Below, one piece after another: positions 9,170 to 52,301 of a stretch of DNA of 63,118 nucleotides. This DNA comes from Methanobacteriota archaeon. Its GTDB lineage: Archaea > Thermoplasmatota > Poseidoniia > Poseidoniales > Poseidoniaceae. Each line of letters starts with the position of its first letter. The first letter of the stretch is position 1. The position numbers and the translations under genes are program-made. The stretch spans positions 1 through 63,118 of the forward strand of contig PBMS01000046.1 in the NCBI GenBank assembly GCA_002722695.1. Direction: 5' to 3'. The notes beneath the pieces were generated by a model that saw only the letters and a program-made list of their open reading frames with translations, was not told where the DNA came from and ran no database searches.

Positions 9170-9216
9170 ATCCCTTCGGGCATACCTTCTTGAACAAGAC
9201 CAAGCGAGGATTCCGT

Positions 9217-18757: not shown

Positions 18758-18775
18758 GAGGTTCACGTCCGATGT

Positions 18776-24676: not shown

Positions 24677-25909
24677 ATGGGTGGATTACTGGACAAAGCA
24701 AACGCTGCTAAAGAACCTGAAACGGACATAAAAACGGTCGAACCTGAGCCGGTTGTCCAAGAAAAAGCAGCCCCCGCCTCCAAAGCAGCTTCTCCCTCCA
24801 AAGCAACACCTGCGATGTCCAGTGCGTCGGGTTCTCCTGACAACGCCACCAAACTCAACCTTGCGGGCTGGGTAATCATTCTCGTTGGGGCCATCCTTTC
24901 GTTGCAGGGCGGCTCTTGGGGCTTCGCTGTTGTGGCGGTCGTTCTCATTCTTGGAATCGGTGCCATCGTGCAGGCCGACAGGATGCGTGGGAGCGTCAGC
25001 AAACCCAAGCTCTACGGAAGCATCGTTGTGGCTCTGCTGATCGCCACCACACCCTACGCTGCCGTCATGCTCGTTCCAACAAACGCTTCGATGGCCATCT
25101 CCGAGGTGGAACTCAACGAAGAAACCGATGAGCTCTCGTTCAAAGTCCGTGGCACCATGTCGTCGGTGGACGTTTCAATCGAAGCCGACGGCGTTGAGAT
25201 GTGGACCGGTTCAGGTGATGTCAGCAACGACATGAAGAAATTCAAGGTCCCACTCGCAGACTTCTTTGCCGGCAACGGTGAAAACCACGCCGGAACCGAA
25301 GTCGTGGAGTACATCATCAAGGGTGCTGGTTCGAACGGTCAAGAAGGCGAAATAAAAATCCCGTCCCGTTTCACGACACGAGAGGCTCAGGATGCTGGCG
25401 TCCGAATTGCTGAGCTTCACGACAGCAACGATGCAGAAGAATACGTTGGTATCACGATGGAAATCCTTGTTGGCCTCCTCAGTCCGAATGAAGATGCTGT
25501 GGACGGTGGCGGCTTCAGTGCAGTGGGTTTACGACCGATGAATGCAGACTACCAAGTTCAGGTAACCGTTAGCGGTGGGGAAACGTGGACTGAGAGTTTG
25601 ATCTCCGTGGATGGAGACATGGCGACCTGGTCGCCTCAGGGCGGTGGAACAGGGAGCGGTTCAACCGCAGGATGGTTCGGACTCACAGGCTCGGGCACCG
25701 ACAATTCCGGCGTCTTTTACCTCGATAAATCAGAATTTTACGAAGGCGCAGGATGCTACACGTTCACCGTTGACATCACCAACACGCTCGGAGATCAATC
25801 CGTCTTCACGTCGGAATACAGCTGGAACATCGATCTTTCATCGGGCGAACGGGACAGCAACAATGATCCCGTTCGACCCAAAGGCGACGGCGTAACCACG
25901 ACCTGCTGA
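24677..25909 (+). CDS. hypothetical membrane protein (low-complexity K/P/A/S N-terminus, 3 TM, extracellular beta-rich domain)
   Basis: The N-terminus is EKAAPASKAASPSKATPAMSSASGSP. The TM helices are LAGWVIILVGAILSL, WGFAVVAVVLILGIGAIV and LYGSIVVALLIATTPYAAVMLV. The frame has a coding-like composition, and there is no competing frame. Confidence 0.65.
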   Translation: MGGLLDKANAAKEPETDIKTVEPEPVVQEKAAPASKAASPSKATPAMSSASGSPDNATKLNLAGWVIILVGAILSLQGGSWGFAVVAVVLILGIGAIVQADRMRGSVSKPKLYGSIVVALLIATTPYAAVMLVPTNASMAISEVELNEETDELSFKVRGTMSSVDVSIEADGVEMWTGSGDVSNDMKKFKVPLADFFAGNGENHAGTEVVEYIIKGAGSNGQEGEIKIPSRFTTREAQDAGVRIAELHDSNDAEEYVGITMEILVGLLSPNEDAVDGGGFSAVGLRPMNADYQVQVTVSGGETWTESLISVDGDMATWSPQGGGTGSGSTAGWFGLTGSGTDNSGVFYLDKSEFYEGAGCYTFTVDITNTLGDQSVFTSEYSWNIDLSSGERDSNNDPVRPKGDGVTTTC

Positions 25910-29518: not shown

Positions 29519-32500
29519 ATGGAAGAACAATTGGATACGAAGGCGGTTCAGCCAAGTGCCACAATGGGGTTGCTGCTCGCACCCTTGGCCGTGCTGCTCG
29601 CTCTTGCCACCACCCGGGTCGTGGGCATTGACTACGACTTGACGTTGAACAACATGACGCCGATGCTGGTTGTCGCCGTCGCAAGCATGGCCGCTTTGCT
29701 GCCACGCATCCTGAAAGAAACTCAACCCCATTTGTCCACCTCCACCGTTTCCCTCGGCGTGTTGGTGTTGGCCATCGTCGGTGCCGAGTTGCTTTACATG
29801 TTCGCAGACGTCGACGCCGTTGCTGCATTGATGTTCGCCATCATCGTCGTGCTCGGCTCAAACCTCGACCTTCGCGGTCGACACGAATGGATGACGACGA
29901 TGGTGTTCACAGCCGTCGGTTTTTGGATTGCTGTTTCCGCAGCAGGGGACGCCTACGCTGCCCTCCCAACCACCTACACCATGGCCAGCGGTGAACTCGT
30001 TTCAACAATGAATCTGGAGCGTCAAGCCACGGCCTACGTTTTCTTTGCCTACTGGACCATGTTTGCACTCGCTGGCTTGTTGGCTGGTGTGCTCGCACGA
30101 GGAAACCTCAACCCGGGTGCCGAAGACGGCTGGTTTTCTTTCCTGGGCCAAACCAAAGGATTCAATCGATCGGCAACGCCGCTGATCCTCGCTCTTGTCG
30201 TGTCGATTCTCGCCTTTGCGGGTTCGCTGTGGCACTTTAACTCGGTTGAGGTTTTCAACCAGTTGGGCATCACCACTGAAGACGGTTACCACGGCTACGT
30301 GGGGTATTGGAGCGCCTTCTTGACCGGTGTTGTTGCGTTGATGATCGCAGGCATGGTTGCCGAGCGGTGGTACACTCGATCGATGCTTCTTGGATCCATG
30401 TGGGTGCTGTACCAAGTCTCCGCATCGTTCGAGGCCGGCATGTGGTACAATGAAAACTTGGACGGAACATGGGGCGCTTTGATTTGGCTCGCCATCACGT
30501 TCTTCCTGTGCGTCGGTGTGTACTCAATCGGCAATCACGAGCGATACGGAGGCTGGGCCAACCGCGGTGAGCACGAACCTTCCCAGGCTCGCTTGTTCCT
30601 GCGAGCCCACGGTGCCGGCATGATGATCGCTCTGGCGTTCATCGTTGGCCTCGCCATCCGCATCCAGTGGTACGCTGTGCCGTCAATGAATGCGTTTGGA
30701 ACAGGAAACTGGGACATGACCGGAGGCTCCGACCCATGGTACATGAAGCGAGTTGTGGACTACATTCTGGCCAACAACGCTCACCTGGTGGTCGACCCCG
30801 ACCGGTTCTACCCCATCGGTGGTATCAACCCCCGTCCGCCGCTGTTTTCGTGGTCCATGGCCCTTGGCGCCATGGCGGTCGAACCCTTCTTGGGTTCACC
30901 TGAAAATGCGGTCTGGTGGAGCATGCTTGCTCTGCCAGCCGTTTACGGCGCGCTCACGGTGTTCCCCATCGCCAGCATGGCCCGGGATCATTTCGGCAAA
31001 GGCGCCGCTGTTCTGGCTGCTTGGCTCATCGCCTTCATGCCAGCCCACGTGACCCACTCGACATGGGCACTCGCCGACCACGATTCGTTTGTGATGCTCT
31101 TCATCTCGATCGGATTCATGTATTGGCTGCGAGCGGTGAAGTACGCTGGCTCAGCCCGTCTCACCAAGACCACAACCCCCCATCCGCTGTCCTTTGTTCG
31201 TGCGTTCCACGACGTGGCCGAACAGCGCAAGGCGGCCATGGCCAACGCGGTCCTCGCCGGCGTTGCGTTCGGTATCGTTGCGCTTGGCTGGAAAGGGTTC
31301 GTGGTCGGCCCGTCCATTCTTTTCCTGGCTTACGCATTGCAGGTCGCTCTGAACATGTTCCGCCGCCGAGACTCCACGGTCCTCAGCGTGATGTTCTTGG
31401 TAATGCTGACGACCACGTTCTTGATGGCCTTGCCCTTCTACGCACACCCTCAGCTCAACCTGGTGTTCGATTCGACCGGATTGCAGCCGTTCCTGTTCAT
31501 CTTCGGCTTCACCATCGCCATCGCCTACATCACCACCGGATTCCGAGACAAGCCCTGGTTGCTGGTTCTCGGTACTCTTGGCAGCGTGGCTCTGGTCTTC
31601 TTTGCCGTGTTGTATGCGCTCAAAGTGGCTGACATCTCGGACGCATGGGATGTGTTGTTCACCGGTAGCGGATACTTCACGAAGACCAAGATCTTCGGGA
31701 CTGTTGCTGAAGCCAATGCGCCCAATCGCGCTCAATTGTTTGCCTCCTTCGGACCCATCACGTTCCTGCTCGCTCTCATCATGGGCGGCGGCTTGTTGTG
31801 GCGCGGTCTGCGGTCGCGAAACGGCACCGCTCTCGTGTTTGGTGTCTGGGTCTTTGCGGCGACCTTCATGGCATGGAACGCCGCTCGTTTCATGTTCAAC
31901 GCCACGCCCATCATGGCCATTCTCGGTGCAGCGGGCATCGTTGCCTTTTGGCGATGGGCGGAGTGGAGCAGTTTGGTCCGCTCGTGGAAGAAATTTGGAA
32001 TCCGAACACCGGGCGATCGAATCGCTGGTGCTCGTAAGGCTGTTTGGCGCACACCTCAATTCTCCGCAGTGTTCCTCGTCATGATCATGATTTTCAGTCA
32101 ACAAGCCACCTACGGACTGGACTCCGCCATCCCCGGCACCTCAACCCAAGAGCAGGAAATCGACGAACGCATCTACAACATTGTCCCGGACATCCTCCGA
32201 TTCGATGAATTAGGCTTCTCTCTGTTGGACAACAAAGACGACGATGGTCGTCGATACCTCGGAAGTTTCGGATCGTCGTTCAACGACAACGGCTGGAACG
32301 CCGCCTACCAATGGCTGGAAAATCAAGACAGGCAAATGAAGTACTCGGACAAACCGGCCTTTGTCTCGTGGTGGGACTACGGATTCCAAGCTCTCAGCAC
32401 GGGCCAGCACCCCTCTGTCTCGGACAACTTCCAGTCGGGAATCCCCGCAGCAGGAAACATGCTGCTCGCACGAAGTCAGGACGACTTGACAGCGATGTTC

Positions 32501-35500
32501 ATTTGGCAACTCTCAGAGGGCGATCGCACGTACGCCAGCGACGGTGAGGATTACAAGATGACGGAACGGTTCATCGACACGGTTGACGCCTACCTGACCG
32601 ATGACCAAATGGACGACTTCCAAACCATGCAAATGACCTTTGATGAAACCATGATCGACTTCATCGAGACGCGGTCCTTCAACGTCGTGAAAACCAATCG
32701 AAACATCGTGATGGCGGAGGGTTACACCCACGAGGCCGGTGTTTTCGACAGCACCACCAAGGTCTACAAGATTTACAAGGACTATGAACCCATTCCCTGC
32801 ACGGACGCCGTTTCAACGTCGTGCGTCGGTGATGCTTGGGGTTCAATGGACCAAGCCGACATCACGTTCAACAACAACGTTCGAACTGCATCGGAAACCG
32901 TTGAAGGCCGAACTCACACCATCTTTGGCGATTATTGGTACACCGACGACCTTCTCGACGAATACACCTCGGTTTCAACGTCGATTCATCGAAAGAACGC
33001 ACGCTTGGCCATGGCGGTTCAGCTGTTGACTGAAGCGTTTGATGCTCACCCAACCGCAAGTATACACGATCTGTACCACGACCTCATCAACCTTGAGGGA
33101 CACTACAAAGTTCAAGATTACGAAGGCGCACCCGGCGAAACCATCAGCAGAGACCATGAAATTCGGTACTTCGCTGTCGACGATCGGTTGTACCCTCGAG
33201 CCGGCCGATACACGGCCGATGCGCAGTACAATCGAGGACAACCCATGGGCATCTTTGGTGCTCCCACCATTTTGGCAGGCCAAGACATCACCACCTACAT
33301 GGACGAAGTGTACGAAACCGTGCGAGGCGATTTCCAAGATGAAATGACCCGAGAGGAGGTGGACGAAGCCATGCAGAAGGACTTCCTGAACCAACAAGCC
33401 GGTGCCGACATCGACATGCTGCAGATTGAAGACGTGCGAGTGGACCACAACCCCGCCTTCTTCGACACCATGGTCGCACGAACTTACGTCGGATACGGTG
33501 CGTCCACGTTGGGTCTTGACGTTGGCTCAAGCAATCCACAACCCGCTCAGCACTTCGGGCAGTCGGGCTCTCCAGGGAGCATTCTCACCAATTCGTTGCC
33601 GCTTCCGGGGGCCATGATGAACCACTTTGTGGTCTCCAACTGGTACAGCGAGGTTGAGGAATCATCGATACAGAGCACCAACACCCTCGTTAAAATTCTG
33701 AAGTACTATCCCGGTGCAACCCTGACCGGCCAAGTCACCATGGGCGATAACGGCGAGCCCCTGCCGGGCGTGCGGTTGCTCATTGAGCGAGATGCATTCT
33801 CCGGTGAGAATGGAGAGGACTTGGACGCCGATACATACTGGGTCCCCATCGGATTCGTGGACGCCGACGACGAAGGAAACTATGAGTTCCTCGTCCCCGC
33901 TGGCCGCATCCGAATTTCCGCCTTTGCGGGCATCTTTGACGCCACCGCAGCGCGCGACAACATCCGAGACGGTTCGTACGGGCAGCGACTCGGTGACATT
34001 CTCACCGAGTACAATGAGGACCGAGAGATCAACGAAATCACTGCAATTTTGGGCCAAGTGGCCAACATGACCTGGATGGGCGAATCTCAGTTGAACGTCA
34101 CTTCAGAGGAAGCGAACCGTTCGGTTTCGTTTGACAAGACCCTCGATCTTGCCGTCCAAAGCAGCGGTGTTTCTGGCACCGTCGTTTGGTCCGGTGATGA
34201 AGCGTTCAGCGGTGATCCAATTTCGGAAACCACGTTCATCCTGAGAAACATTTGGTCGATGACGGACAACTACACCGTCGAAACCACCAGCGGTTCATTC
34301 ACCTCTGAAGACTCCCGCATCCTCCAAGGAACGGGCGAAGCGACTCTGGTTGAGAACGGCTCCTTTGACAGCGAAGGCATCGCTCTTGCGAGCAACTTCA
34401 TCGGAACCTTCACTCGAGACATCGGCAACGAGCGCTCGTTCTTTGCCAACGGTACGTGGTCTGGAAACGGTGTGCTTGAAGCTTCGTGGGTCGATGCTAC
34501 CGACGTGGTGGAGTGCGATACGGACAACGAATCCAACGCCATCATGCCCACCAACCAAACGCTTTGTGTCATTGAATCCGGCGACACGCCTTCCTATCGA
34601 CTGGAGGGCACCGTCGAAGCCTTTGGCACCTTTACGTCCGAAGGGACATCCACGCTGAGCCGCACCTACGGAGATGCTGATACCTCTCAAGGAGAAACCC
34701 TCGAGGGAGCCGGACTCTTCGAAGGGACTGGAACCTTCAACGGCACCGGGTTGTTCGTTGGTGTAGGGTCCTTCTCTGGCCCCATGGTGGAACCCGGTTC
34801 CTTTTACAAGACCGGACTTTTGCCAGGGACCTACAACATGATTGCACAATTGGCCAACGGAAAGGAAGTCCTCCTACCCGACCCGGTTGAAATCGGCGTC
34901 GAACCCAGCTACGATCTTGACATGAACATGCCAGGTGCCATCTTCAAGGACACCCTGTTTGACATGAACGGTGAAATCATGCCCAACCAAACCATCGAAT
35001 TTGTTGACGTTGACTTGGGTGAGGAGTTTACCGTGATGATCGACACCGATGAAAACGGCAACTTTTCCTACGGACCGATTCCGGTGGGCGACTACTACTA
35101 CAGAGGTGACGTCGATAACGACGGCTGGTACGACTTCAACGAATCCACGTTCGTCACCGACGCTGTCACGAACATCACGATGGCTTTGAACGTTCCAGAA
35201 ACCGCCGACGTCTCGCTGACGCTCGTTTCCCCGGTCGACCCCGTGTCAGCGGAACCCTTGTTCGATGTGGCCAATCGTACCATCACCTTCCAAAACGAAG
35301 TTGACGTTCTCGATCCGATCAACGTGACGAGTGACGAGAACGGTGAACTCTACGTCGAACTTCTCTACGGCGTCTGGAACATACGCGATGACGTAAACCC
35401 GGAATTTGTGCTCTTCGACCAAATTGAGCTGGAACCAGGAACCGGCGATGTGGTTCAAGACGTCACCTACGCTCAAGCAGCGTACATCAACGGAACGATG

Positions 35501-38500
35501 CGCAACTACCCAGCAACAAGCGTCTTGGAATGGCAAACATGGAACAACGAAACACCCACTGCTGAAAAGTTGGAAACATCGGAAGCGGCTTCCGGATTGA
35601 CCGTGAACGTGGTTTCCGGCGACCTTGAGTTTTCTACGGTCGCCAACGTGACCGGTGACTTCTCGATTCGTGTTCCGTCCGGGTTCACCTACCATCTGAC
35701 CACAGAAAGCGTTGTCACCAACCGTGCTTACGGAAGCTTGGTGAACGTTGAAATCGGCACCGATCTTGATCTCGGCCCCTTGTACATCGAGCCCACCACC
35801 TTGGTCAACGGTGTTGTTTACCTCTACGAAAACACCACCCGCTGGGACTCCAGCCTACCGAGTTGGGAACCCACCGAAATCGTGGCGACCAACGAGGACG
35901 GCCTCCAATGGCGAGCAACCACCAACGAACTGGGAGAGTTTGCATTTGACCTCACCGACGGAACATGGGACATTGACGTCTCCGACGATCGCCTCAACGT
36001 GAGCACCGTGGACGGCTTGTCCGTTTCCTACGTCAGTACGGAGGCCTTGTCGGTGATGGAACTCACCGCTGAGCCGGACATGGTGAACGTGCTGATGCAC
36101 GTCTTCCTCAACTCTGCCGAAGACGGTACGTTTGAGAACGGAACGATGGCAACACCCGCGTTTAGCCTGGACCCGATCGATGAAAGCAAGGACACTCTGT
36201 ACTTCACCTCTGATGATTACACCGAACCCGGTGTCATTACGGTCTCGCTCGCTCCCGGCGGCTACGACCTGACGTTCAACCGAACATCAGCGACCAACGA
36301 AAACGCCACGGACTACGACTTGGTCGGGGAGCAGTTCTTTGACGCTCTGCGAATCGGATTGGACGCCATCGACGAGCCCTTTGAGGTGGCGTTGAAGAAC
36401 ACCTATCTTGTTTCGGGAACACTGACCAACACGACCGGCGATGGCATTGCCAACGACTTCCTGCTTTACAACGAGGCTGGGGATGAATGGTTCAACATCG
36501 GTTCGGACGCAAACGGTTCCTTTGCCGCTTACGTCCCTGCGGGCGAATGGTTGGTCATTGTGGCTCCGTTCAACAACGCAAACCACACCGAAACCTTGCG
36601 ACAACCTCTGACCGTCGCTGCGGAATCGGACCGAACCGGACTTGACATCACCACCTCAATCAGTGTAGAAGTCTCCATGCAACTCATGGAGGCCGTCACC
36701 GAGTCCGCCCTCTCTGACATGACGGTGACGGCCGTCAGTCATGATGGATTTGGCAACGTGACCTTTGAGCGTACCAACGAGGATGGCAACGCCACCGAAT
36801 TGTTGATGCCCGGCACGTGGAGTTTCTACTTCAACCGAACCATCGGCACGAAATCGTGGTTCATGGACACCAGCGACGCACCGTTCACGACCGACGATGC
36901 GGATGAAAACAACTCGCTTGTTTTGGACCCTGTCTATGCAACGCTCGAAGTTGAAATCGGTGGCAAAGTCTACTGGGATCTCAACAACAACAGTGCGCCC
37001 AGCCTCGGTGAAGGCATCCCAGACATGAACGTCACCATCCTCGGCAACAACAACACCGACGTCTCTCAAACCGTCTCGACCGACGAAGAGGGTGTTTGGC
37101 GTGTCTTTGTGCCGATTCGCGACGTCTACAACGTGACCGTGGAAAAGGAAGGCTTCGAGACCGTGTACTACGAAACGGAAAACCAAACAGGCTACACCGT
37201 TCACGACAGCCCAGACTCCACGGACATTGAAGTCAGCGCTGGATTGGTGCTGGTTGAAGGAACCGTAACCGACCAGCTCGACGCTGACCGACTGATCGAT
37301 GCCGACATCGTGTTGTACCCTGTCGCAGGCATTGAGCGAGAGCCAGTCCACGTGGACGGCGGAATGAACGACACCACACTTGAATGGTCAGCCAGTGTTG
37401 AGCCAGGCGAATGGGTGGTTGTCGTGACTCAATCCAATCCAGGAATCAACGGCGGTGGCGTTTCCATTGGACTGCTCGACGCCACGGTCGCCAACGGCGG
37501 CAACGTCAGCATGGTGATGGCGCTCGGTGGCTACGTGGACCTTCTCACGGCGTGGACAGACTTTGAACAAAACACGCACCACGCCGGCAGCGGTGATGAC
37601 GGTGCGGACATGATCCAAGACGATGTTGAGTTGGAGGTCACCTTTGACGAGATGTCGTGGGTCATGAGCGTCCCCACCTCTGGAGAACTCCGAGCCCTCT
37701 TCCCAGAAGGGTCCGTCTCGTTTGACAGTGAGTTCACGACGGTCCAGCACGAATCTGAGCTCGAAATGGAGTACTACGGCGGACAAACCACCACGGTAAA
37801 CGCCGATTCCACCATTGCAGCCACGCTGCAGTTCAACCGTCGTGTCAATTCAGCCTTGGACATCACCTTGGACGTGCCCTCCGTTGTGGACGCCAACGTG
37901 CTTGACGCCGATGATTCCGAACTTGAAGCAATTGTTGACATGACCAACGAGTCCGCCTACAAGAAAATCGAGTTTGACTACAACGTTGTCTACAACGGAA
38001 CAGAAACCTTGGATGTGTTCACCGTTGGAGGCGAGATGAGTCTTGCTCAGGATTCTGATTTGTGGACCGTTGAGTTCTACAACCAAAGCAGCAACGAATA
38101 CGAGGAGACCATCAACGTGGCTCTTGGCATCGGCGAAAACGCTTCGGTCTCAACAACCATCTCGGTGAGAATCTCCCTGCCTGATGTGGCCGATGCGTGG
38201 CATTTGGCCAACGGGCATCGCATGACAATGCGTCTTCAAACCGATCTCGGTGAGTCTTCACAAGCATCGATCAAGATCTTCGTGCCGCAAACGTTTGGAT
38301 TTACCATCTCGGAAGAAACCGAAGAGGTCGGTATGTCGGCTCTCGTCGAGCGTCAGTTCACCTTTGATTTGACCAACGATGGAAACGGTCAGGATTCGTT
38401 CACGATTGCGTTGTTGGAAAGCGGTGTACCTGCCGAGTGGTCGGTCACACCGATGTCCTCAACCCTGACCCTCAACAAGGGTGAAACCCGGACGCAACAG

Positions 38501-39064
38501 TTCACGGTCTTCGCACCGAGCACCTACACAGACGGCGACGACTTTGAATTGGTTGTCTACGTCTCAAGCGAAAACGAAGAGGTCGAACGCAAGGAAGTCA
38601 AGGTCCAAATCAAGAAGGCCGTGATTGCCCTCACACTGGACACCGATCGAATCGCCACGGAGTCCGACCTCATCGCCGGCAAGAGTGGAGCCGTGCGCGT
38701 TCCTGTGGAGAACGTTGGGCTTTTGGACGCACCGTCGGTCATCGTCTACCTTACACCACCCAACGGTGTTGAACTCTCGCAGACCATCTCGGTTCCCGCC
38801 GGTGGCGAAGGGATGGCGGTGTTTGACGATCTGACGTTCAACCAAGGCAACCAGCGCTTCGATTACCGAATCGAGGTGGCCGGTGCTGAATCAGCCAGCG
38901 TTGAATCCCTCCCAGCAGACGGTGATTTCCCGCTTGAGTACAACACCGAGACCACTGCAGACGGTGAATCCGTGTGGATGACCCTTCTGATTGTGGTGTT
39001 GGGCCTGCTCGTGATTTACGGTGGCGTTCGCACCGCCCGCAGCCGAGGCGGAACCCGCTTCTGA
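29519..39064 (+). CDS. aglB: giant oligosaccharyltransferase fusion protein (extra N-terminal TM module + AglB/STT3 core + beta-sandwich array of about 1,750 aa + C-terminal TM)
   Basis: This is a single open frame of 3,181 codons. The WWDYG motif is at nt 32369-32383 (residues 951-955). The first-loop acidic motif is GGSDPWYMKRVVDY. There are about 13 STT3-type helices at residues 370-950 and about 10 further helices at residues 1-370. CarboxypepD_reg-like and CARDB-like repeats lie downstream. The terminal segment is WMTLLIVVLGLLVIYGGVRTARSRGGTRF. Confidence 0.9.
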   Translation: MEEQLDTKAVQPSATMGLLLAPLAVLLALATTRVVGIDYDLTLNNMTPMLVVAVASMAALLPRILKETQPHLSTSTVSLGVLVLAIVGAELLYMFADVDAVAALMFAIIVVLGSNLDLRGRHEWMTTMVFTAVGFWIAVSAAGDAYAALPTTYTMASGELVSTMNLERQATAYVFFAYWTMFALAGLLAGVLARGNLNPGAEDGWFSFLGQTKGFNRSATPLILALVVSILAFAGSLWHFNSVEVFNQLGITTEDGYHGYVGYWSAFLTGVVALMIAGMVAERWYTRSMLLGSMWVLYQVSASFEAGMWYNENLDGTWGALIWLAITFFLCVGVYSIGNHERYGGWANRGEHEPSQARLFLRAHGAGMMIALAFIVGLAIRIQWYAVPSMNAFGTGNWDMTGGSDPWYMKRVVDYILANNAHLVVDPDRFYPIGGINPRPPLFSWSMALGAMAVEPFLGSPENAVWWSMLALPAVYGALTVFPIASMARDHFGKGAAVLAAWLIAFMPAHVTHSTWALADHDSFVMLFISIGFMYWLRAVKYAGSARLTKTTTPHPLSFVRAFHDVAEQRKAAMANAVLAGVAFGIVALGWKGFVVGPSILFLAYALQVALNMFRRRDSTVLSVMFLVMLTTTFLMALPFYAHPQLNLVFDSTGLQPFLFIFGFTIAIAYITTGFRDKPWLLVLGTLGSVALVFFAVLYALKVADISDAWDVLFTGSGYFTKTKIFGTVAEANAPNRAQLFASFGPITFLLALIMGGGLLWRGLRSRNGTALVFGVWVFAATFMAWNAARFMFNATPIMAILGAAGIVAFWRWAEWSSLVRSWKKFGIRTPGDRIAGARKAVWRTPQFSAVFLVMIMIFSQQATYGLDSAIPGTSTQEQEIDERIYNIVPDILRFDELGFSLLDNKDDDGRRYLGSFGSSFNDNGWNAAYQWLENQDRQMKYSDKPAFVSWWDYGFQALSTGQHPSVSDNFQSGIPAAGNMLLARSQDDLTAMFIWQLSEGDRTYASDGEDYKMTERFIDTVDAYLTDDQMDDFQTMQMTFDETMIDFIETRSFNVVKTNRNIVMAEGYTHEAGVFDSTTKVYKIYKDYEPIPCTDAVSTSCVGDAWGSMDQADITFNNNVRTASETVEGRTHTIFGDYWYTDDLLDEYTSVSTSIHRKNARLAMAVQLLTEAFDAHPTASIHDLYHDLINLEGHYKVQDYEGAPGETISRDHEIRYFAVDDRLYPRAGRYTADAQYNRGQPMGIFGAPTILAGQDITTYMDEVYETVRGDFQDEMTREEVDEAMQKDFLNQQAGADIDMLQIEDVRVDHNPAFFDTMVARTYVGYGASTLGLDVGSSNPQPAQHFGQSGSPGSILTNSLPLPGAMMNHFVVSNWYSEVEESSIQSTNTLVKILKYYPGATLTGQVTMGDNGEPLPGVRLLIERDAFSGENGEDLDADTYWVPIGFVDADDEGNYEFLVPAGRIRISAFAGIFDATAARDNIRDGSYGQRLGDILTEYNEDREINEITAILGQVANMTWMGESQLNVTSEEANRSVSFDKTLDLAVQSSGVSGTVVWSGDEAFSGDPISETTFILRNIWSMTDNYTVETTSGSFTSEDSRILQGTGEATLVENGSFDSEGIALASNFIGTFTRDIGNERSFFANGTWSGNGVLEASWVDATDVVECDTDNESNAIMPTNQTLCVIESGDTPSYRLEGTVEAFGTFTSEGTSTLSRTYGDADTSQGETLEGAGLFEGTGTFNGTGLFVGVGSFSGPMVEPGSFYKTGLLPGTYNMIAQLANGKEVLLPDPVEIGVEPSYDLDMNMPGAIFKDTLFDMNGEIMPNQTIEFVDVDLGEEFTVMIDTDENGNFSYGPIPVGDYYYRGDVDNDGWYDFNESTFVTDAVTNITMALNVPETADVSLTLVSPVDPVSAEPLFDVANRTITFQNEVDVLDPINVTSDENGELYVELLYGVWNIRDDVNPEFVLFDQIELEPGTGDVVQDVTYAQAAYINGTMRNYPATSVLEWQTWNNETPTAEKLETSEAASGLTVNVVSGDLEFSTVANVTGDFSIRVPSGFTYHLTTESVVTNRAYGSLVNVEIGTDLDLGPLYIEPTTLVNGVVYLYENTTRWDSSLPSWEPTEIVATNEDGLQWRATTNELGEFAFDLTDGTWDIDVSDDRLNVSTVDGLSVSYVSTEALSVMELTAEPDMVNVLMHVFLNSAEDGTFENGTMATPAFSLDPIDESKDTLYFTSDDYTEPGVITVSLAPGGYDLTFNRTSATNENATDYDLVGEQFFDALRIGLDAIDEPFEVALKNTYLVSGTLTNTTGDGIANDFLLYNEAGDEWFNIGSDANGSFAAYVPAGEWLVIVAPFNNANHTETLRQPLTVAAESDRTGLDITTSISVEVSMQLMEAVTESALSDMTVTAVSHDGFGNVTFERTNEDGNATELLMPGTWSFYFNRTIGTKSWFMDTSDAPFTTDDADENNSLVLDPVYATLEVEIGGKVYWDLNNNSAPSLGEGIPDMNVTILGNNNTDVSQTVSTDEEGVWRVFVPIRDVYNVTVEKEGFETVYYETENQTGYTVHDSPDSTDIEVSAGLVLVEGTVTDQLDADRLIDADIVLYPVAGIEREPVHVDGGMNDTTLEWSASVEPGEWVVVVTQSNPGINGGGVSIGLLDATVANGGNVSMVMALGGYVDLLTAWTDFEQNTHHAGSGDDGADMIQDDVELEVTFDEMSWVMSVPTSGELRALFPEGSVSFDSEFTTVQHESELEMEYYGGQTTTVNADSTIAATLQFNRRVNSALDITLDVPSVVDANVLDADDSELEAIVDMTNESAYKKIEFDYNVVYNGTETLDVFTVGGEMSLAQDSDLWTVEFYNQSSNEYEETINVALGIGENASVSTTISVRISLPDVADAWHLANGHRMTMRLQTDLGESSQASIKIFVPQTFGFTISEETEEVGMSALVERQFTFDLTNDGNGQDSFTIALLESGVPAEWSVTPMSSTLTLNKGETRTQQFTVFAPSTYTDGDDFELVVYVSSENEEVERKEVKVQIKKAVIALTLDTDRIATESDLIAGKSGAVRVPVENVGLLDAPSVIVYLTPPNGVELSQTISVPAGGEGMAVFDDLTFNQGNQRFDYRIEVAGAESASVESLPADGDFPLEYNTETTADGESVWMTLLIVVLGLLVIYGGVRTARSRGGTRF
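33680..38930 (+). repeat. array of Ig/CarboxypepD_reg/CARDB-like beta-sandwich modules inside the aglB mega-ORF
   Basis: Recurrent patterns include ...G.V....G.P.....V........T.D..G.[YF].F..[VL]P.G.[YW]... (for example ATLTGQVTMGDNGEPLPGVRLL...DDEGNYEFLVPAGRIRI and VSGTLTNTTGDGIANDFLL...DANGSFAAYVPAGEWLV). CARDB-like modules occur near the C-terminus (VRVPVENVGLLDAPSVIVYL...VPAGGEGMAVF). Confidence 0.7.
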
Positions 39065-39128
39065 TGTTCACTTTCACGTGGATTTTCAAACAAGGGTTCA
39101 TGAGGACCACAACTGGGTAGCGCAAGCC

Positions 39129-40337
39129 ATGGAAGGGCTGCGAGATGTGGAATACCTTCCCGAGCCATCCGACCGGCGCATCGTGTCTGCGGTGGACCCC
39201 ACGGTGATCGGTTTCCAAGATCAGTGGCGTTCAGAGACCATGGGTTGGGCCCCGTTGACCGTTGAACCGGTGGTTCAACATCAACGAGGGAGATTTTCCA
39301 TCTCAGGTCTGGTTGTGTTTGCGTTGCTGGTCTCGGTAAGCCTCCTGATGTGGCAGAACCAGTGGCTCGTCGTCGAATTACCACTTCCGCAATCCGAGTG
39401 GGCGTTTGAGGAAACAGAACTTCGCGAGGCTCAGGCATCCGGATTGACCGGAGAGGGTGTGCGAGTGTGCATGGTCGACACCGGTATGGACACGAACCAT
39501 GAGGCCTTCAGCGGCGTCAGCGTCCAGTTCAAAGACCTCGTGGGGAATTCTCGAGCACCCGTTGATTACGGTGCTGTGGCGCACGGTACGCTGATGGCCG
39601 GCCTGCTGCTTTCCCAAGACGACCATCAACTCGGTGCGGCACCGAACGTATCGTTCGCCATGGTGGCGGCGCTTTCCGACAACGGCAACGGAGAGAACAC
39701 CGGCCTGGACGACGATGTTGCCGATGCCATTCGTTGGTGTCAATTTGAATTCAGTGCCGACATCATCTCCCTGTCCTTGGGCGGTTCAGAAGAACGAAGC
39801 GGGTCTGAAGGGGGCTCTTCGTCCGCAACTCGGCAGGCAACGGACGCAGGCATTTACGTGGTTGCTGCAGCAGGGAACGACGGCCTTGACGACGACGGCG
39901 ATGTCGCCTCACCCAGCAGCGCACGATTGGCCATATCCGTAGCAGCCTCGATCGAAGGCGGCGGTGTTTGGGCCAACTCTTCGGTTGGCTCACTTATCGA
40001 CCGAGAAGGCGGGGTTCGGGAACATCCGCACATGAAACCCGAGGTCGCAGCTCCCGGCGAGGGAATCATCAGCACGGGCGGAGAAAACCGTTGGTATTCA
40101 AGCAGCGGGACATCGGACGCCACCGTCTTTGTAACCGGAGCTCTTGCGCTCGTCCTCGAGGCGCGACCCATGTTGAAGCCCCAGTCCAACGGCGATGCGT
40201 CGTGCTTGATCGCAGTGAAGGAAGCCTTGATGGAGTCGATGCAAACCGACACGATTGTGCACGACGAGCGAGGAGGATACGGAGTCCTCAATGCGCAGTC
40301 CTGGTTGGAACACACTTCACAAATCACCTCCTGTTGA
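39129..40337 (+). CDS. membrane-anchored subtilisin-like serine protease (peptidase S8), paralogue of 9217-10611
   Basis: The triad motifs are VCMVDTGMDTNHEAF, VAHGTLMAGLLL and SGTSDATVFVTGAL. The signal-anchor is FSISGLVVFALLVSVSLLMW. The start is uncertain: GTG 39021 overlaps aglB by 44 nt, and GTG 39078 or ATG 39129 are alternatives. Confidence 0.8.
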   Translation: MEGLRDVEYLPEPSDRRIVSAVDPTVIGFQDQWRSETMGWAPLTVEPVVQHQRGRFSISGLVVFALLVSVSLLMWQNQWLVVELPLPQSEWAFEETELREAQASGLTGEGVRVCMVDTGMDTNHEAFSGVSVQFKDLVGNSRAPVDYGAVAHGTLMAGLLLSQDDHQLGAAPNVSFAMVAALSDNGNGENTGLDDDVADAIRWCQFEFSADIISLSLGGSEERSGSEGGSSSATRQATDAGIYVVAAAGNDGLDDDGDVASPSSARLAISVAASIEGGGVWANSSVGSLIDREGGVREHPHMKPEVAAPGEGIISTGGENRWYSSSGTSDATVFVTGALALVLEARPMLKPQSNGDASCLIAVKEALMESMQTDTIVHDERGGYGVLNAQSWLEHTSQITSC

Positions 40338-40455: not shown

Positions 40456-40516
40456 TGATACTCTAAGATTGCCCAATGAGGCGCAGTATTATATTCGGGG
40501 CGTACATGGGGAAAAC

Positions 40517-40522
40517 AGGTGA
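40517..40522 (+). promoter_or_regulatory. Shine-Dalgarno AGGTGA
   Basis: AGGTGA lies 7 nt upstream of the ATG at 40530. Confidence 0.55.
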
Positions 40523-40529
40523 ATCGCCG

Positions 40530-43500
40530 ATGTCGCAAAAAAATCGTTTGAAATCAGTATCGCTCGTGATGCTCTACATGACCTCGCTCATGCTGGCGAT
40601 GGTGGCTGTACCGTCGGCAACGGCCGTCAACGAAACCACCCAAGGCATTGTCTCGGGCACCGAAACGTGGTCGGGCACCATGAATCTTCAAGGCGACGTC
40701 GAAGTGGCCGAGGGTGCTAAATTGATTGTGAACGCAGGAACCACGGTCAACATTCCCGCCGGCAATTTCATTGATGTTCGGGGTGCCATCTGCATCGGCG
40801 ATGCTGCTTGCGGTGCCAGTGCTGGATCATCCTCTGCCAAGGCTCGGTTCATCTGGTCCACGCCGACCGATGATACGAAAACCGGTCGCTGCCTTGACAC
40901 ACAGAGCAATGTCCTGAACAATCCGGACGCAGCCTGCGGGTCAGGTATGATCATCCGGGACACGATCGACCAGTCCATTACGTCCATCAACTTTGCACAT
41001 TTTGAGAACGCCTACGGCTTTCCCATCTACGTCGCATCCTTGCAATCTGTTCAGTACGGAGCACTGGTGTTTGACGGCTCAACCACGACCGCCAACGGAC
41101 TCTCGTTCACCTCCATCAACACCTCCAACGTTCTCGCAGTGGACTACGCCGCTCCCCTCCTAACGGATTCCACCTTTGAGTTGGGCGTGGACGGCCAAGG
41201 CTACGATGCAGCAGCGGTTCGCGCCTACGACGCAGGCGCCGGTATTCTTTCGACGTTTGAGTTGAAGAACTCCGATTTCACCGGCAACGATGCAGATTGC
41301 GGTCAACAGGGAGGCGGTCGAGCTGTCATCTACATTGAAAACTCCTACATCGATATGGACAATCTCGACATCAAGGACAACGCCTATGGGATTTTGATGA
41401 AGTCAAGTTCAGGTACCCTCACCAACTCCCAAATCAACGTCAAATGCAACGCTGTTGACACCAACTCGCTCAAAAAGACAGGAAACATTGAGCACACGCT
41501 TGAGGTCAACAACAACGACATCACCACGGCCGAGGGTGCTGGCATCACGGCGTACGACGGCGCCAAAGTCTACGCCGAGGGCAACACCATTTCCGGTGCC
41601 TCGGACGGGTCTGGCGTCGGCATCCGTGGCTCTGAGGTTGAACTTCATCGCAACACCATCGGGCCCATCGGCGGGTGGAACGGCTTGTGGATTTACGGCA
41701 CGTCCGACGTGATCGCAGAAAACAACACCATCCAAGAAACGGGCAAAGAGCCCGTCCTTATCGGTGAGTATCACTACCAAGACCAAGGTTGGCAGGTTCC
41801 TGCTCCGTCTGCTGCCCGTTTGTACTTGGCCAACAACGTCATCATGAACAACACCGGAACCTGCAATTCCCAGATGTATGGCGGTGATTTCCCTTGCCCT
41901 GCTGTTCACGTGTTCAGGTCCTCCGCTACGATTCTGGACAACGACATTTCGGGGAACAACGGCGACATCATCCGCGCCAAGGGCTCCCTCATCAACGTCC
42001 AACGAAACACAGCCGACTCGCAGGGCGGCTTTGCAGGGAACGTCAGCGCTCACGACACCAACTACGGCGACAAGTACGGTTCCATCGCTTACTTCTCAGG
42101 AAACACGTGGACGGGTGTTTCACAGGTCTACAACGTCACCGAGTCTCGTGTCACCGTGCAGTCCGAGCAGATTCCGTCCCCGGGCAACGGTGAACTCTAC
42201 CCCGTCAGCATCTCGTGGCTCGGCGCAGAGTGCCCCTTCGTGCAGAACGAGTGTCTCCAGCTGCCCGGAACCGTCGCTCTCCCACCCGCTGAAATGCCTC
42301 TCGCTCTGGAACTCGTCGAAAACGCAACCGTGTTCTCGTTCGCAGATCTCCAGAACTTTGACTCAAGCATGATTCACGTGCAGAATCAAAACACCGCTTG
42401 GGGTTCGCAAGTTCGCGAGGGTGAACTGGTCCGCTACCAGGTCAAGGCAAAGAACTCCAACGTTGAAGGGGCCACGGTCATCATCAAGGACTCTACAGGG
42501 CTTCCGCTCTACGAATTGACCACGGATGCGTTTGGCTTCACTCAGCAAGTTTCCCTTCCCTCCGACTTCTTGTTGGACCGAAATTGGAACCACGTGGTCG
42601 GCGACAAAAACGCCGCCATCCCCGGGACCAACGACGGAACGGGTCAACCCGTTGTGGTGGACGAGGACTCCTGCGCCGACGGCATTGACAACGACGGAGA
42701 CACCTACATCGACGGCGACGACAGCGACTGCATCAACGGTCGAGAGCGTCCATTTTATTCGGTTGAGGCGTTCAAATTCGGCAGCGGCCGGGACGATTTC
42801 TCCTACGTCTTGACGGGTCCGATCGACGACATCATCAATCTCGAAAACCTACGACCCAGCGTCAGCGTGAACGAACCCGATGGCTACTCTTACGCCACAA
42901 CCGTTCGAATCACCGGACAAGCTTGGGACGGAGCAAAATGGCCCTACGCCAACGACAACACCGCCCAGCAGGCGCAGTTTGGCATCGTCAAGCGTGTCGA
43001 AATTCAACCGCCCGGCTCCACCGACTGGTTCTACGCCTCCGATGCCTCGGGCGCAGGCGGCGAAATCACCATGGAAACGCACCCGTTCAAAAATTGGGTG
43101 TACGAGTGGGACGGTGCCGCTCATCCAGAGGGGGAGGGCGACATCACGTTCCGAATCCGATCCTACGACGGATTGGATTACTCACCGGTTGAAGTCCGCC
43201 AGTACAAACTCAATCTTGTTGCACCAACCCTCCTGGTGGACGTGCCGACCCAAGGCAGCGTGCACAACAACGGCAAGGTGCTCTTCCAAGGCACCGCCTC
43301 TGACCCGTATCAGGGCACCTACGGAAGCGACGTCAAGCAGATTTGGTTCAACATTGTCGGTCCAGGCACCACGCAATCCTTCTTCCAGCAGGGTTCAACC
43401 AGTTGGTCCTATGAATGGAACGTTGTTGATCTGCCCACCGGTGAATACACCGTCTCGGTTTGGGCTGCGGACAGCGATTTCTGCATCGGCGAAGCAACGG

Positions 43501-44927
43501 TATCGGATGGGTGCGTGGTTGAAACTCGCACCATCACCATCAACAACGACAACATTCCACCCAATCTCCAACTGTCGTGGATCGGTGCTGAGGACCAGTC
43601 GAGCGGTGGCATCGACGGCGGCACCTTGCGTGCTTCCGACGACACCAAGATCATGGGCGTTGCTCGAGACATCGGTGGATTTGTCACACGTGTGGAAATT
43701 GAAATCACCGATTTGGCCAACGGCTTGGTGCTGAACAACGGACCCCTACCGGTCACCAATTTTGCCGTTGACGGTTCTTGGGTGGCAACTTGGGACACGT
43801 CCAAACTCGTTCACGACAGCGTCTACGCCGTGACGGTACGAGCTTACGACGGCGACGACTACTCCGATGATGTTGTTTGGCGGATGACCGTCAACAACCC
43901 GTTGGATGCTGAAAACATCGATCCGGTGTTCAACGAAACAAACTGGGTCTCAACTTGGACCATCTTCTGCGATCAAAATTCGAACTCCTTCGACAAGTGC
44001 GGTGGCGGTGTTTCTTTTGACCTCGCTGAATTCTTCGAGGACCCCGACGGCACAGGAGAAGCTGGAAACGACCTCGAGTTCTACGTCTTTGACGACGAAG
44101 CGACCATTGAAGACGACTTCTACGACGATTTCATCACCATCACGTCCATGGGTGTGTTGACCTACGACCCGATGACCTACATGGCTCAAACAACCACCAA
44201 CATTCCGGACTGGTCGCTGAATTCCGTTATGGTCTATGCGCAAGACGACCAGGAATCCAAGGCTTTCTCGCTGAAGATGAATTTCCTTGTGGTCGCTGTT
44301 TCCTTCACGGTTGAACGAGTGGACTCGGGTGACATCACCGTCAACGACCCCGCCGAATTCCGAGGAAACGGCCTGCCCGGCAGCACCGTCATCGCTCGAT
44401 TTGCCGATGGAAACGCCAGGTTGAACTCGACACGGGTGCTTTCCGACGGCTCATGGAACATGGAACTGACGGCCGGTCAACTCAGTGGCATTGAGGGTTC
44501 ATCTGAGGTCATCTTTGAGATGGACGGTCAAATTTTCAAGTTCGCTGGTCAAACCGAAAACGCCGAGTTCTCGGTCATGGTTTCCAGCGGCAACGACGGT
44601 GGTTCCGGATTGCTGTTCATCGGTCTCATTGTGGTCGCAGTGTTGGCTCTTCTGGGCGTTGGCGCTTACTTCTTTATCGAGTTTGAAGAACTGCCTGACG
44701 AGGATGAGCTGACAGGAGACGATACGCCGGAGGAGGTTGACCCCTACGCTTGGGCCAAGAACAAGCAAACGCCCGAAATTCCCCAACAGCAGGCCCAACC
44801 AGAAGCCGCATCAGCTCCTGCACAAGCGGCAGCTCCCGCTGCCAGTCAACACCCAGGTTGGCTCTGGGATCAGGCCTCGAACCAGTGGGTGCCCGACCCC
44901 GACTACCAACAGCCACCACAGCAGTGA
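40530..44927 (+). CDS. giant surface protein: signal peptide + parallel beta-helix (PbH1/NosD-like) repeats + Ig-like modules + TM + acidic/PQ-rich cytoplasmic tail
   Basis: Signal peptide MSQKNRLKSVSLVMLYMTSLMLAMVAVPSATA. Beta-helix repeats include NSYIDMDNLDIKDNAYGILMKSS, NNDITTAEGAGITAYDGAKVYAEGNTISG and NNVIMNNTG. A Cys/Asp motif CADGIDNDGDTYIDGDDSDC lies at 42671-42731. The TM helix is LLFIGLIVVAVLALLGVGAYFFI (about 44608-44680). Confidence 0.85.
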   Translation: MSQKNRLKSVSLVMLYMTSLMLAMVAVPSATAVNETTQGIVSGTETWSGTMNLQGDVEVAEGAKLIVNAGTTVNIPAGNFIDVRGAICIGDAACGASAGSSSAKARFIWSTPTDDTKTGRCLDTQSNVLNNPDAACGSGMIIRDTIDQSITSINFAHFENAYGFPIYVASLQSVQYGALVFDGSTTTANGLSFTSINTSNVLAVDYAAPLLTDSTFELGVDGQGYDAAAVRAYDAGAGILSTFELKNSDFTGNDADCGQQGGGRAVIYIENSYIDMDNLDIKDNAYGILMKSSSGTLTNSQINVKCNAVDTNSLKKTGNIEHTLEVNNNDITTAEGAGITAYDGAKVYAEGNTISGASDGSGVGIRGSEVELHRNTIGPIGGWNGLWIYGTSDVIAENNTIQETGKEPVLIGEYHYQDQGWQVPAPSAARLYLANNVIMNNTGTCNSQMYGGDFPCPAVHVFRSSATILDNDISGNNGDIIRAKGSLINVQRNTADSQGGFAGNVSAHDTNYGDKYGSIAYFSGNTWTGVSQVYNVTESRVTVQSEQIPSPGNGELYPVSISWLGAECPFVQNECLQLPGTVALPPAEMPLALELVENATVFSFADLQNFDSSMIHVQNQNTAWGSQVREGELVRYQVKAKNSNVEGATVIIKDSTGLPLYELTTDAFGFTQQVSLPSDFLLDRNWNHVVGDKNAAIPGTNDGTGQPVVVDEDSCADGIDNDGDTYIDGDDSDCINGRERPFYSVEAFKFGSGRDDFSYVLTGPIDDIINLENLRPSVSVNEPDGYSYATTVRITGQAWDGAKWPYANDNTAQQAQFGIVKRVEIQPPGSTDWFYASDASGAGGEITMETHPFKNWVYEWDGAAHPEGEGDITFRIRSYDGLDYSPVEVRQYKLNLVAPTLLVDVPTQGSVHNNGKVLFQGTASDPYQGTYGSDVKQIWFNIVGPGTTQSFFQQGSTSWSYEWNVVDLPTGEYTVSVWAADSDFCIGEATVSDGCVVETRTITINNDNIPPNLQLSWIGAEDQSSGGIDGGTLRASDDTKIMGVARDIGGFVTRVEIEITDLANGLVLNNGPLPVTNFAVDGSWVATWDTSKLVHDSVYAVTVRAYDGDDYSDDVVWRMTVNNPLDAENIDPVFNETNWVSTWTIFCDQNSNSFDKCGGGVSFDLAEFFEDPDGTGEAGNDLEFYVFDDEATIEDDFYDDFITITSMGVLTYDPMTYMAQTTTNIPDWSLNSVMVYAQDDQESKAFSLKMNFLVVAVSFTVERVDSGDITVNDPAEFRGNGLPGSTVIARFADGNARLNSTRVLSDGSWNMELTAGQLSGIEGSSEVIFEMDGQIFKFAGQTENAEFSVMVSSGNDGGSGLLFIGLIVVAVLALLGVGAYFFIEFEELPDEDELTGDDTPEEVDPYAWAKNKQTPEIPQQQAQPEAASAPAQAAAPAASQHPGWLWDQASNQWVPDPDYQQPPQQ

Positions 44928-44936: not shown

Positions 44937-44943
44937 GAGGTGG
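44937..44943 (+). promoter_or_regulatory. Shine-Dalgarno GAGGTGG for the STAND regulator
   Basis: It lies 5 nt upstream of the ATG at 44949 and only 10 nt after the stop of the preceding giant gene, which implies co-transcription. Confidence 0.55.
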
Positions 44944-44948
44944 ACTGC

Positions 44949-52113: not shown

Positions 52114-52237
52114 GCGAACATCGGTCCTTGGACGCGGGAAGGACTTGAACACACCGCCTGTGGCCTTCAAGAAGGAGCCGTTTCCGAGGGTTTGTTGGCG
52201 AACTCAACACCGATTTGTATGAACATTGTTCCATCAC

Positions 52238-52247
52238 CCTCATAAGC
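52238..52247 (+). promoter_or_regulatory. candidate TATA box (CCTCATAAGC) for the TSP3 giant gene
   Basis: This is an identical decamer to the one at nt 217-226. It lies about 58 nt upstream of the ATG at 52302, which itself has a GGTGAG SD. Confidence 0.3.
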
Positions 52248-52301
52248 AATTTGAGCAAGGTGAAAAGAGAGCAGGGCTCAGCCTTTGCCGACGGTGAGTT
52301 C

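Follow-up and report, generated by a model that had tools for sequence, protein, structure and literature searches.

Contig PBMS01000046.1 of the Poseidoniaceae genome assembly GCA_002722695.1 (Methanobacteriota archaeon), hereafter the window, was analysed over its whole length of 63,118 nucleotides (nt). It encodes a giant AglB/STT3 oligosaccharyltransferase (OST) of 3,181 amino acids (aa), which is the subject of this study. Characterised archaeal AglBs measure about 600–1,050 aa; the window OST is three times longer than these and differs from them in ten additional N-terminal helices, an additional chain of 1,765 aa and a second membrane anchor. The complete architecture recurs, at conserved length, in the order Poseidoniales. 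In our judgement it is probable that the protein is an active AglB carrying, in its own chain, a heavily N-glycosylated surface arch that is anchored in the membrane at both ends.

Open reading frame, distribution and catalytic core

The OST gene is a single ATG-initiated open reading frame (ORF) of 3,181 codons at 29519..39064 of the forward strand. As the preliminary description of this DNA had stated, the frame is uninterrupted, the ORF listing and the translation being free of internal stops, and the base composition is even within the ORF and around it. An open frame of 3,181 codons cannot originate by chance. A search of 5.8 billion proteins (ENA, NCBI, JGI, Tara and Logan assemblies) returned more than 120 protein clusters (90% identity level) of 3,125–3,227 aa, with 100% query coverage and 48–100% identity to the OST; the length of this family is 3,183 ± 14 aa. 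Relatives are encoded in at least 580 GTDB species genomes (one genome scanned per species). Nearly all of the best 80 of these are labelled Poseidonia, Poseidoniaceae or Poseidoniales, and the closest genome match shows 87% identity over residues 340–1500, which places the window in a Poseidonia archaeon of Marine Group IIa. The concern about a frameshift or a chimeric assembly is thus removed, not through raw reads but because frame and length recur in these independent clusters and species genomes.

A representative of 3,148 aa with the same architecture has a protein labelled Candidatus Thalassarchaeaceae in its cluster, and the gene order at the locus of this representative is identical. 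The architecture is therefore, as judged from sequence, order-wide and fixed in both families of the Poseidoniales. Pairwise dN/dS values from six related loci were 0.04–0.2 in all five segments compared, among them the N-terminal extension and the two halves of the chain; dS is saturated in these comparisons, so that the values constitute qualitative evidence only, and in this sense they point to purifying selection along the whole length of the protein.

The catalytic family is well known. Full-text literature searches, with most subscription journals outside their coverage, gave no description of a giant or double-anchored AglB, nor of an OST of such size and topology. The novelty previously proposed thus stands as far as the literature searched is concerned; the architecture itself is no rarity, as it is universal in Poseidoniales and the sequences are public under generic names ('STT3 domain-containing', 'GT39 family', 'carboxypeptidase regulatory-like').

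Residues 369–1385 are assigned, on sequence and model comparisons, to an AglB/STT3 oligosaccharyltransferase of family GT66 with a GT-C fold. Pfam STT3 (PF02516) matched residues 393–666 with 46.3 bits, above the gathering cut-off of 24.5. The model TIGR04154 (archaeo_STT3) aligned to residues 368–988 over model positions 2–574 of 831; its score of 169 bits lies below the curated cut-off of 450, so that the protein lies outside that subfamily, which comprises the OST tied to the archaeosortase A system. Comparison with PDB sequences by phmmer retrieved AglB-L of Archaeoglobus fulgidus (AfAglB-L; 3WAJ, 5GMY; E 1e-9). The catalytic motifs are practically invariant among the full-length homologues, with GGSDPWY of the first external loop (EL1) and ADHD present in 118/118 and T[VI]AE in 117/118. 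The AlphaFold2 (AF2) model of residues 340–1500 had a mean predicted local distance difference test score (pLDDT) of 58, with helices at 60–89 and residues 984–1199 at 75–89. Foldseek comparison of this core model with the PDB recovered human STT3A, AfAglB, yeast STT3 and PglB (E 3e-11 to 3e-4); the top 16 matches were all STT3 or AglB chains (E 3e-11 to 2e-6), with PglB at about 2e-4. The window OST and AfAglB-L (PDB 3WAJ, 3WAK, 5GMY, 7E9S) are alike in a GT-C fold of about 13 transmembrane (TM) helices, the EL1 Asp, the D-x-D/H, TIXE and WWDYG motifs, and an external domain with beta-rich peripheral units. Pfam, the AfAglB-L alignment and Foldseek agree with the core that had been placed at residues of about 370–955, including a Pfam match above the cut-off; the first external loop motif was confirmed, and the position given for WWDYG was exact (Table 1).

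The region after this core had been described as a soluble domain. Such a domain is present; it is actually the normal external catalytic domain of an AglB plus a lineage-specific insertion, which is indicated by the spacing between WWDYG and IRYFA: 256–276 aa in the Poseidoniales giants, compared with a median of about 145 aa in the next closest family, made up of giants that lack an N-terminal extension, and with about 60–70 aa in AfAglB-L (own reading, to the DK-type motif). The insertion (about 984–1199) is modelled confidently by AF2 as helices plus a sheet. No N-x-S/T sequon was found in residues 871–1400, where 3.5 were expected. The segment IRYFAVDDRLYP...GIFGAP (residues 1215–1249) is conserved in 107–112 of the 118 homologues, and distant giants have IRYFAVDxRLFP...GIFYAP. 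It sits at the position expected for the DK (DxxKxxxM/I) or MI motif and resembles 'VSDIEMETGKYYAM' of AfAglB by eye, in a part of the model of low confidence; in the by-eye alignment, DK-type enzymes have Lys where the window OST has Ile.

Table 1. Coordinates of the giant OST of the window, of its predicted parts and of the genes that follow it.
Feature	Position (nt)	Strand	Evidence or remark
Giant AglB/STT3 oligosaccharyltransferase	29519..39064	+	3,181 aa plus stop; homologues of 3,125–3,227 aa at full length
N-terminal extension, residues 1–368, about 10 TM helices, predicted N-in/C-in	29519..30622	+	Hydropathy, AF2
STT3/AglB membrane domain, residues 369–870, about 13 TM helices, GT-C fold	30623..32128	+	Hydropathy, Pfam, TIGR04154, phmmer, AF2, Foldseek
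First external loop motif GGSDPWYMKRVVDY, residues 402–415, putative catalytic Asp405	30722..30763	+	Aligned to GGNDPWYY (D47) of AfAglB-L
LADHDSF, second acidic metal-binding motif, D520-H521-D522	31070..31090	+	Aligned to DHH region of AfAglB-L
GTVAEAN, TIXE-type motif of external loop 5, Glu731	31697..31717	+	Aligned to TIAE of AfAglB-L
External catalytic domain, residues 871–1385	32129..33673	+	Insertion at about 985–1200 (nt 32471–33118); without sequon
WWDYG, residues 951–955	32369..32383	+	118/118 homologues; aligned to WWDYG of AfAglB-L; matches PDB C-terminal domains 3VGP, 3VU0
IRYFAVDDRLYP...MGIFGAPTIL, residues 1215–1252, candidate DK/MI equivalent (Ser/Thr pocket), Ile for Lys	33161..33274	+	By-eye match to AfAglB 'KYVVSDIEMETGKYYAM'
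External chain, residues 1386–3151, about 15–18 beta-sandwich domains, acidic, sequon-rich	33674..38971	+	Pfam/NCBIfam, composition, sequon counts
C-terminal TM helix and conserved cytoplasmic tail (VWMTLLIVVLGLLVIYGGV-RTARSRGGTRF)	38972..39061	+	Hydropathy 2.46
Membrane-anchored S8 subtilase	39021..40337	+	Pfam Peptidase_S8, E 3e-33; signal-anchor helix at residues 92–110
Right-handed beta-helix surface protein, 1,483 aa, signal peptide, C-terminal TM, Pro/Gln-rich cytoplasmic tail	40476..44927	+	Third gene of the block
HTH + AAA/STAND + TPR protein	44940..47474	+	Fourth gene, 13 nt after the third; 52% identity in MGIIb locus L085

N-terminal extension, external chain and C-terminal anchor

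Kyte–Doolittle hydropathy gave nine clear helices within residues 19–337. A tenth is placed tentatively at about 288–308, as the positive-inside rule calls for a helix between the flanking loops and as the first helix of STT3 begins in the cytoplasm. The AF2 model of residues 1–380, built from 62 sequences (pLDDT 77.5, predicted TM score 0.77), contains about ten long helices, so that hydropathy and model agree with the ten or so additional helices over about 370 aa that had been noticed ahead of the core. No known fold or family was recognised in this extension: Foldseek gave no match in the PDB (best E 0.3, TM score 0.19), no Pfam match was obtained at E ≤ 0.1 and no match to PDB sequence profiles, and hhalign found no internal 5+5 repeat. 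Secondary hidden Markov model (HMM) matches to STT3 helices were insignificant (i-E 0.06 or worse). For the extension, descent from a transporter, a flippase or a duplicated GT-C domain is thus unsupported, though conceivable. Its profile HMM matched other Poseidoniales representatives (E 1e-22 to 1e-156) and none of the relatives that lack an N-terminal extension.

The extension is the fastest-evolving part of the OST. At one locus of Marine Group IIb (MGIIb), L085, it was missed by tblastn (E < 1e-3), yet the protein encoded there, P0130, has about ten helices before its STT3 core. The invariant residues of the extension are for the most part E123, R194-G195, G204-W205-F206, E282-x-W-x-T-R287, G344, W346 and S355. 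Under the predicted topology these lie in loops assigned to the cytoplasm, which suggests that the extension binds a cytoplasmic partner.

The external chain is acidic (D+E 17%, K+R 4%), and no hydrophobic segment was detected between residues 871 and 3151 (Kyte–Doolittle). Six stretches of the chain matched CarboxypepD_reg (E 9e-20). Weak matches to CARDB, FixG_C and NPCBM_assoc were obtained near residues 2929–3026, one or two CARDB-like units being counted in the chain, and a sub-threshold NCBIfam match to a choice-of-anchor-T domain was located at 2910–3025, just before the anchor. Only about half of the chain bears a Pfam signature; by analogy, the remainder may consist of more beta-sandwich domains, and the number of domains in Table 1 was estimated from length alone. 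Sequence comparison of the chain with the PDB gave matches limited to OST chains. Profile self-comparison produced only four internal matches, with 69–78% probability, and a recent origin by tandem repeats was rejected on these few and weak matches; the domains are, as far as sequence comparison indicates, old and diverged. The array of CarboxypepD_reg and CARDB-like sandwiches that had been proposed for about 1,750 aa therefore stands, without true sequence repeat. The chain is collinear with that of the MGIIb orthologue (28% identity), its first 400 aa or so being its best conserved stretch, and it is barely alignable between the Poseidoniales family and other giants.

The chain holds, between residues 1516 and 2874, 41 of the 45 sequons of the protein, compared with 17.9 expected from shuffled sequences (z 6.3), a 2.3-fold enrichment which is the strongest among the proteins of the window. 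Over 118 homologues the mean was 44.7 sequons against 19.2 expected (mean z 6.7, minimum 4.2), and in distant giants 34.7 against 14.8. Sequon positions are also maintained: in 39 homologues of 48–81% identity, each sequon is kept in the same alignment column by 67% of the sequences on average, and the conservation of sequon Asn residues is 0.70, compared with 0.40 for other Asn residues. Owing to this enrichment and conservation, the chain most likely carries many N-glycans itself, added by the catalytic site of the same polypeptide or by a neighbouring one.

In the surface glycoprotein (SLG) of Haloferax volcanii, glycosylation is carried out by a separate AglB and the protein is anchored through PGF-CTERM. 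S-layer and surface glycoproteins such as this one are similar to the window chain in being acidic, sequon-rich Ig-like arrays with a C-terminal anchor. Unlike SLG, the presumed substrate in the window OST is a covalent part of the enzyme and has neither its own signal peptide nor PGF-CTERM. The acidic composition, sequons, Ig-like domains and anchor are compatible with an S-layer glycoprotein, and the formation of a lattice is putative.

A strong terminal helix (residues 3152–3170) is followed by RTARSRGGTRF, hydropathy thus confirming the final TM helix with a basic tail of the preliminary description. Helix and tail are more conserved than the adjoining chain, with the pattern YGG.[KR].[AS]R......[RK]F, and Phe is the last residue in 125/127 family members ([RK]F or PF). 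The NCBIfam sorting-domain models gave no match in the last 70 aa of the OST or of two other family termini, and P[GSA]F was found in the last 40 aa of none of the 127 Poseidoniales proteins; an archaeosortase-type signal (PGF-CTERM, Loki-CTERM, Heimdall-CTERM) was accordingly not recognised in the window OST.

Relatives, proposed function and alternative explanations

An exhaustive HMMER search with residues 368–1400 against 1.84 billion representatives gave 770 matches, of which about a dozen are of the 3,146–3,228-aa type with the N-terminal extension. The next tier has 28–36% core identity and mostly 2,010–2,775 aa, with the STT3 core starting near residue 20–130, and its sources are named Thermoplasmata or Thermoplasmatota archaeon. 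Among the 150 closest representatives from other Thermoplasmatota, double-anchored versions of 2,000–2,800 aa predominate. These giants and the window OST are alike in belonging to one AglB subfamily and in having IRYFAVD...GIFYAP...PxPGxMMxHF, the first CarboxypepD_reg domain, a sequon-rich chain and a C-terminal TM helix. They differ from it in lacking the N-terminal extension, in a shorter insertion and in a chain that is unalignable past its first domain: the alignable parts are the core, the segment after WWDYG and residues 1213–1372 plus the first beta-sandwich after the catalytic domain, which is common to both families.

Among giants without the extension, 80/82 end in a TM helix and 9/83 have P[GSA]F before it. 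Some of them end in archaeosortase-type P[GS]F signals, in contrast to the window OST; 2/7 scanned P[GSA]F termini passed the Loki-CTERM or Heimdall-CTERM cut-offs, which denote surface-protein signals. Their gene neighbourhoods differ and are without the S8 and beta-helix genes that follow the window OST. Most representatives that appeared short were fragments of proteins of 2,040–2,201 aa, and their interpretation as ordinary paralogues was rejected. A class of 1,100–1,380 aa from Thermoplasmata has, like the window OST, a core and a few C-terminal CarboxypepD_reg domains, with a free C-terminus and no terminal helix, and looks like the short end of a series. On sequence comparison, these relatives appear to form a graded series, whose members have about 1,150 aa and a free end, then 2,000–2,800 aa and an anchor, and finally 3,180 aa and one membrane domain more. 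A search for a cultured host of a giant AglB, seeded with a Methanomethylophilaceae fragment, gave proteins from metagenome-assembled genomes (MAGs) only.

Two of these relatives call for separate mention. In the P0230 cluster, one contig of 1.48 Mb encodes the AglB in three pieces (954, 663 and 597 aa), totalling about the 2,201 aa of an intact member; this probably reflects frameshift errors in a long-read assembly and not a natural split. On the Thermoplasmata contig L081/L082 (1–7762), the gene for a 2,449-aa AglB (P0140) is directly preceded upstream by genes for a protein exceeding 8,300 aa and for an Ig/PKD-rich protein of 1,077 aa, so that the neighbours of the giant OST gene in other Thermoplasmata include genes for still larger surface proteins.

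The account that we consider probable is the following. Judging from the intact motifs and fold, residues 369–1385 would work like any AglB, taking a lipid-linked glycan on the outer face of the membrane and passing it to the Asn of sequons; D405, D520/D522 and E731 would keep metal and acceptor amide in place, and WWDYG and the Ile-containing DK/MI-like segment would bind the +2 Ser/Thr. The domain of ten helices at the N-terminus would be a docking or regulatory module and not a second enzyme. The acidic chain of about 1,765 aa would stay extracellular and return to the membrane through the terminal helix, forming an arch anchored at both ends. Such an arch, in which the peripheral beta units known from ordinary AglBs would be expanded to an extreme, may be a built-in cell-surface glycoprotein module that adds to the glycan coat of the cell and keeps the enzyme in the envelope. 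The enrichment of an aglB transcript in active MGIIb populations, where it is listed for an MGIIb MAG (PMC9723583), counts as further support and is the only related item that the literature searches gave. The earlier idea that glycan transfer is physically coupled to an envelope scaffold is speculation. A bolder form, in which the OST and the principal surface glycoprotein are one polypeptide, appears unlikely: the arch, with about 40 conserved self-added N-glycans, would be a main element of the envelope, as an S-layer substitute or as pillars beneath a beta-helix coat, the N-terminal domain would be linked to a cytoplasmic or lipid-carrier step such as delivery of the lipid-linked glycan, and a shorter form would exist in many other Thermoplasmatota.

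Several points weigh against the glycosylated arch. The domain count and the arch geometry are estimates, as the models cover residues 1–380 and 340–1500, and the core model itself is only moderate, with the mean pLDDT of 58 given above. The DK/MI motif departs from the canonical form, its alignment having been made by eye. For a passive coat, the conservation of the terminal tail and of the first 400 aa of the arch is higher than needed, which hints at a specific interaction, and the poor alignability of the arch fits a coat or spacer role without proving it.

The glycosylated arch and its rivals are not fully exclusive of each other. A precursor is conceivable in which the downstream S8 subtilase cuts the polyprotein near residues 1330–1390 into an AglB of ordinary size and a C-terminally anchored, heavily glycosylated surface protein, possibly S-layer-like. 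The S8 gene abuts or overlaps the OST stop and follows the OST in every long-enough locus of Marine Group IIa (MGIIa) and MGIIb, the C-terminal part resembles the other surface proteins of the window with signal peptide and C-terminal TM helix, and segment 1339–1370 (NPQPAQHFGQSGSPGS...LPLPGAMMNHF) is nearly invariant yet modelled at pLDDT < 50. However, the P[LM]PG.MM.HF segment is also conserved in distant giants without an S8 neighbour, so that it probably belongs to the catalytic domain and is less likely to be a site of cleavage. Moreover, the fusion is retained in all complete relatives seen, among which no two-gene lineage turned up, and the beta-helix protein or further surface proteins are equally conceivable substrates of S8; this reading is accordingly considered improbable. 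As for an artefact or a dead gene, whether by mis-assembly, by read-through fusion with a surface-protein gene or as an inactive relic, nothing was found in its favour, its only grounds being that the size is unusual and that the window comes from a single contig. Frame, length and arrangement of the parts recur in over 120 clusters and in 580 or more species genomes, with invariant catalytic motifs and purifying selection along the whole length, and artefactual assembly or gene fusion was rejected on this conserved architecture; the probability left to this explanation is negligible.

The chain and terminal helix might, on the other hand, act as a built-in accessory subunit. Ribophorin I/II and OST48 each consist of luminal beta-sandwich domains and a C-terminal TM helix, and NOMO is a similar chain in translocon-associated complexes. 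In eukaryotic OST (STT3, ribophorin I/II, OST48) and in NOMO of the BOS complex, external or luminal beta-sandwiches are tied by C-terminal helices as in the window OST; there the parts are separate polypeptides, and the likeness is architectural, without demonstrated homology. By this analogy the terminal helix would pack onto the STT3 or N-terminal domain, the chain would capture, shield or chaperone acceptors leaving the Sec pore, and a partner in the cytoplasm would dock on the [RK]F tail and on the conserved face that the N-terminal domain turns to that side. Conservation of the terminal helix and tail and of the first 400 aa or so of the chain, with Phe at the end of 125/127 proteins, is in line with this, as is the clustering of the invariant N-terminal-domain residues in assigned cytoplasmic loops. 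Pfam NOMO1-like_9th (26.4 vs 27 bits) and TRAP-alpha (E 0.04; 13.5 vs 24.7 bits) also matched, but below their gathering scores, which does not place the protein in the NOMO/BOS-complex or TRAP-alpha families, and prealbumin-like folds in general give such matches. Most of the chain changes faster than a specific protein interface would allow, its strong and conserved sequon enrichment would be unexpected for a chaperone platform, and, since Thermoplasmatota lie off the eukaryotic stem, any similarity would be convergent. An accessory subunit is hence also regarded as a rather doubtful explanation.

Gene neighbourhood and significance for Marine Group II

The block purD – OST – S8 subtilase – surface protein of about 1,450 aa – HTH-STAND-TPR protein was found in every Poseidoniaceae locus long enough and also in MGIIb locus L085, and looks like an operon for envelope proteins. 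The S8 ORF overlaps or abuts the OST stop, depending on its start (GTG 39021, GTG 39078 or ATG 39129), and it follows the OST in 65/80 loci, the rest being cut contigs, and in L085. The beta-helix gene is present in 62/80 loci and shows 34% identity over 1,500 aa in MGIIb. Its product always comes after the OST and S8 in Poseidoniales, is better conserved than the OST chain among Poseidonia loci, and is sequon-depleted (9 vs 14.5 expected). No N-glycosylation gene cluster was found around the OST, the neighbours being purD, the protease, surface proteins and a regulator.

Other genes of the window were also recorded. A GT4-family glycosyltransferase (2830–3978, reverse strand) and a weaker S8-like ORF (8920–10611, forward strand; 563 aa, E 4e-6) are located 19–26 kb upstream of the OST, where genes of glycine cleavage and nucleotide metabolism surround them. 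The ORF at 13871–18766 (reverse strand; 1,631 aa) has a signal peptide, a C-terminal TM anchor, five Lamin-tail domains (E 8e-81) and two PLD-like domains (E 1e-34), and may encode a surface-anchored nuclease or phospholipase-D-type enzyme. The membrane protein encoded at 24677–25909 (forward strand) varies between 27% and 81% identity among genomes, the adjoining genes being much better conserved, and several independent MAG contigs stop 3–4.5 kb upstream of the OST start, many OST contigs measuring 72–77 kb; together this suggests, for this gene and the stretch at about 26.0–26.3 kb, a recurrent assembly break at a hypervariable spot. On the other side, two adjacent genes at 47952–51268 (reverse strand; 744 and 361 aa) have N-termini similar to archaeal type IV pilins, with weak matches of the 361-aa product to DUF7289 and Pilin_N, and adjoin a metallo-beta-lactamase-fold gene (51301–52170). 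The ORF at 52215–58052 (forward strand; 1,945 aa, D+E 18%, no Pfam match) has 31 sequons against 15.5 expected (z 4.5), the second-strongest enrichment in the window, and its product is probably another large N-glycosylated surface protein on that account.

In surface ocean water, few archaea are as abundant as those of Marine Group II. To our knowledge, no member of the group has been brought into culture or had the composition of its envelope described. This enlarged enzyme of N-glycosylation is carried by all members of Marine Group II examined. The size, the order-wide fixation and the arrangement of enzyme plus substrate would surprise a glycosylation specialist, while the role of the additions is still conjecture. 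The graded series of relatives offers a traceable path by which a membrane enzyme may have gained a scaffold. If the arch is truly a glycan-coated surface structure, the protein would represent a rare case of an enzyme fused to what appears to be its own major substrate and a natural one-chain counterpart of the multi-subunit eukaryotic OST. The arch would in that case also be a defining component of the envelope of these archaea and a likely point of contact for viruses, grazers and particles.

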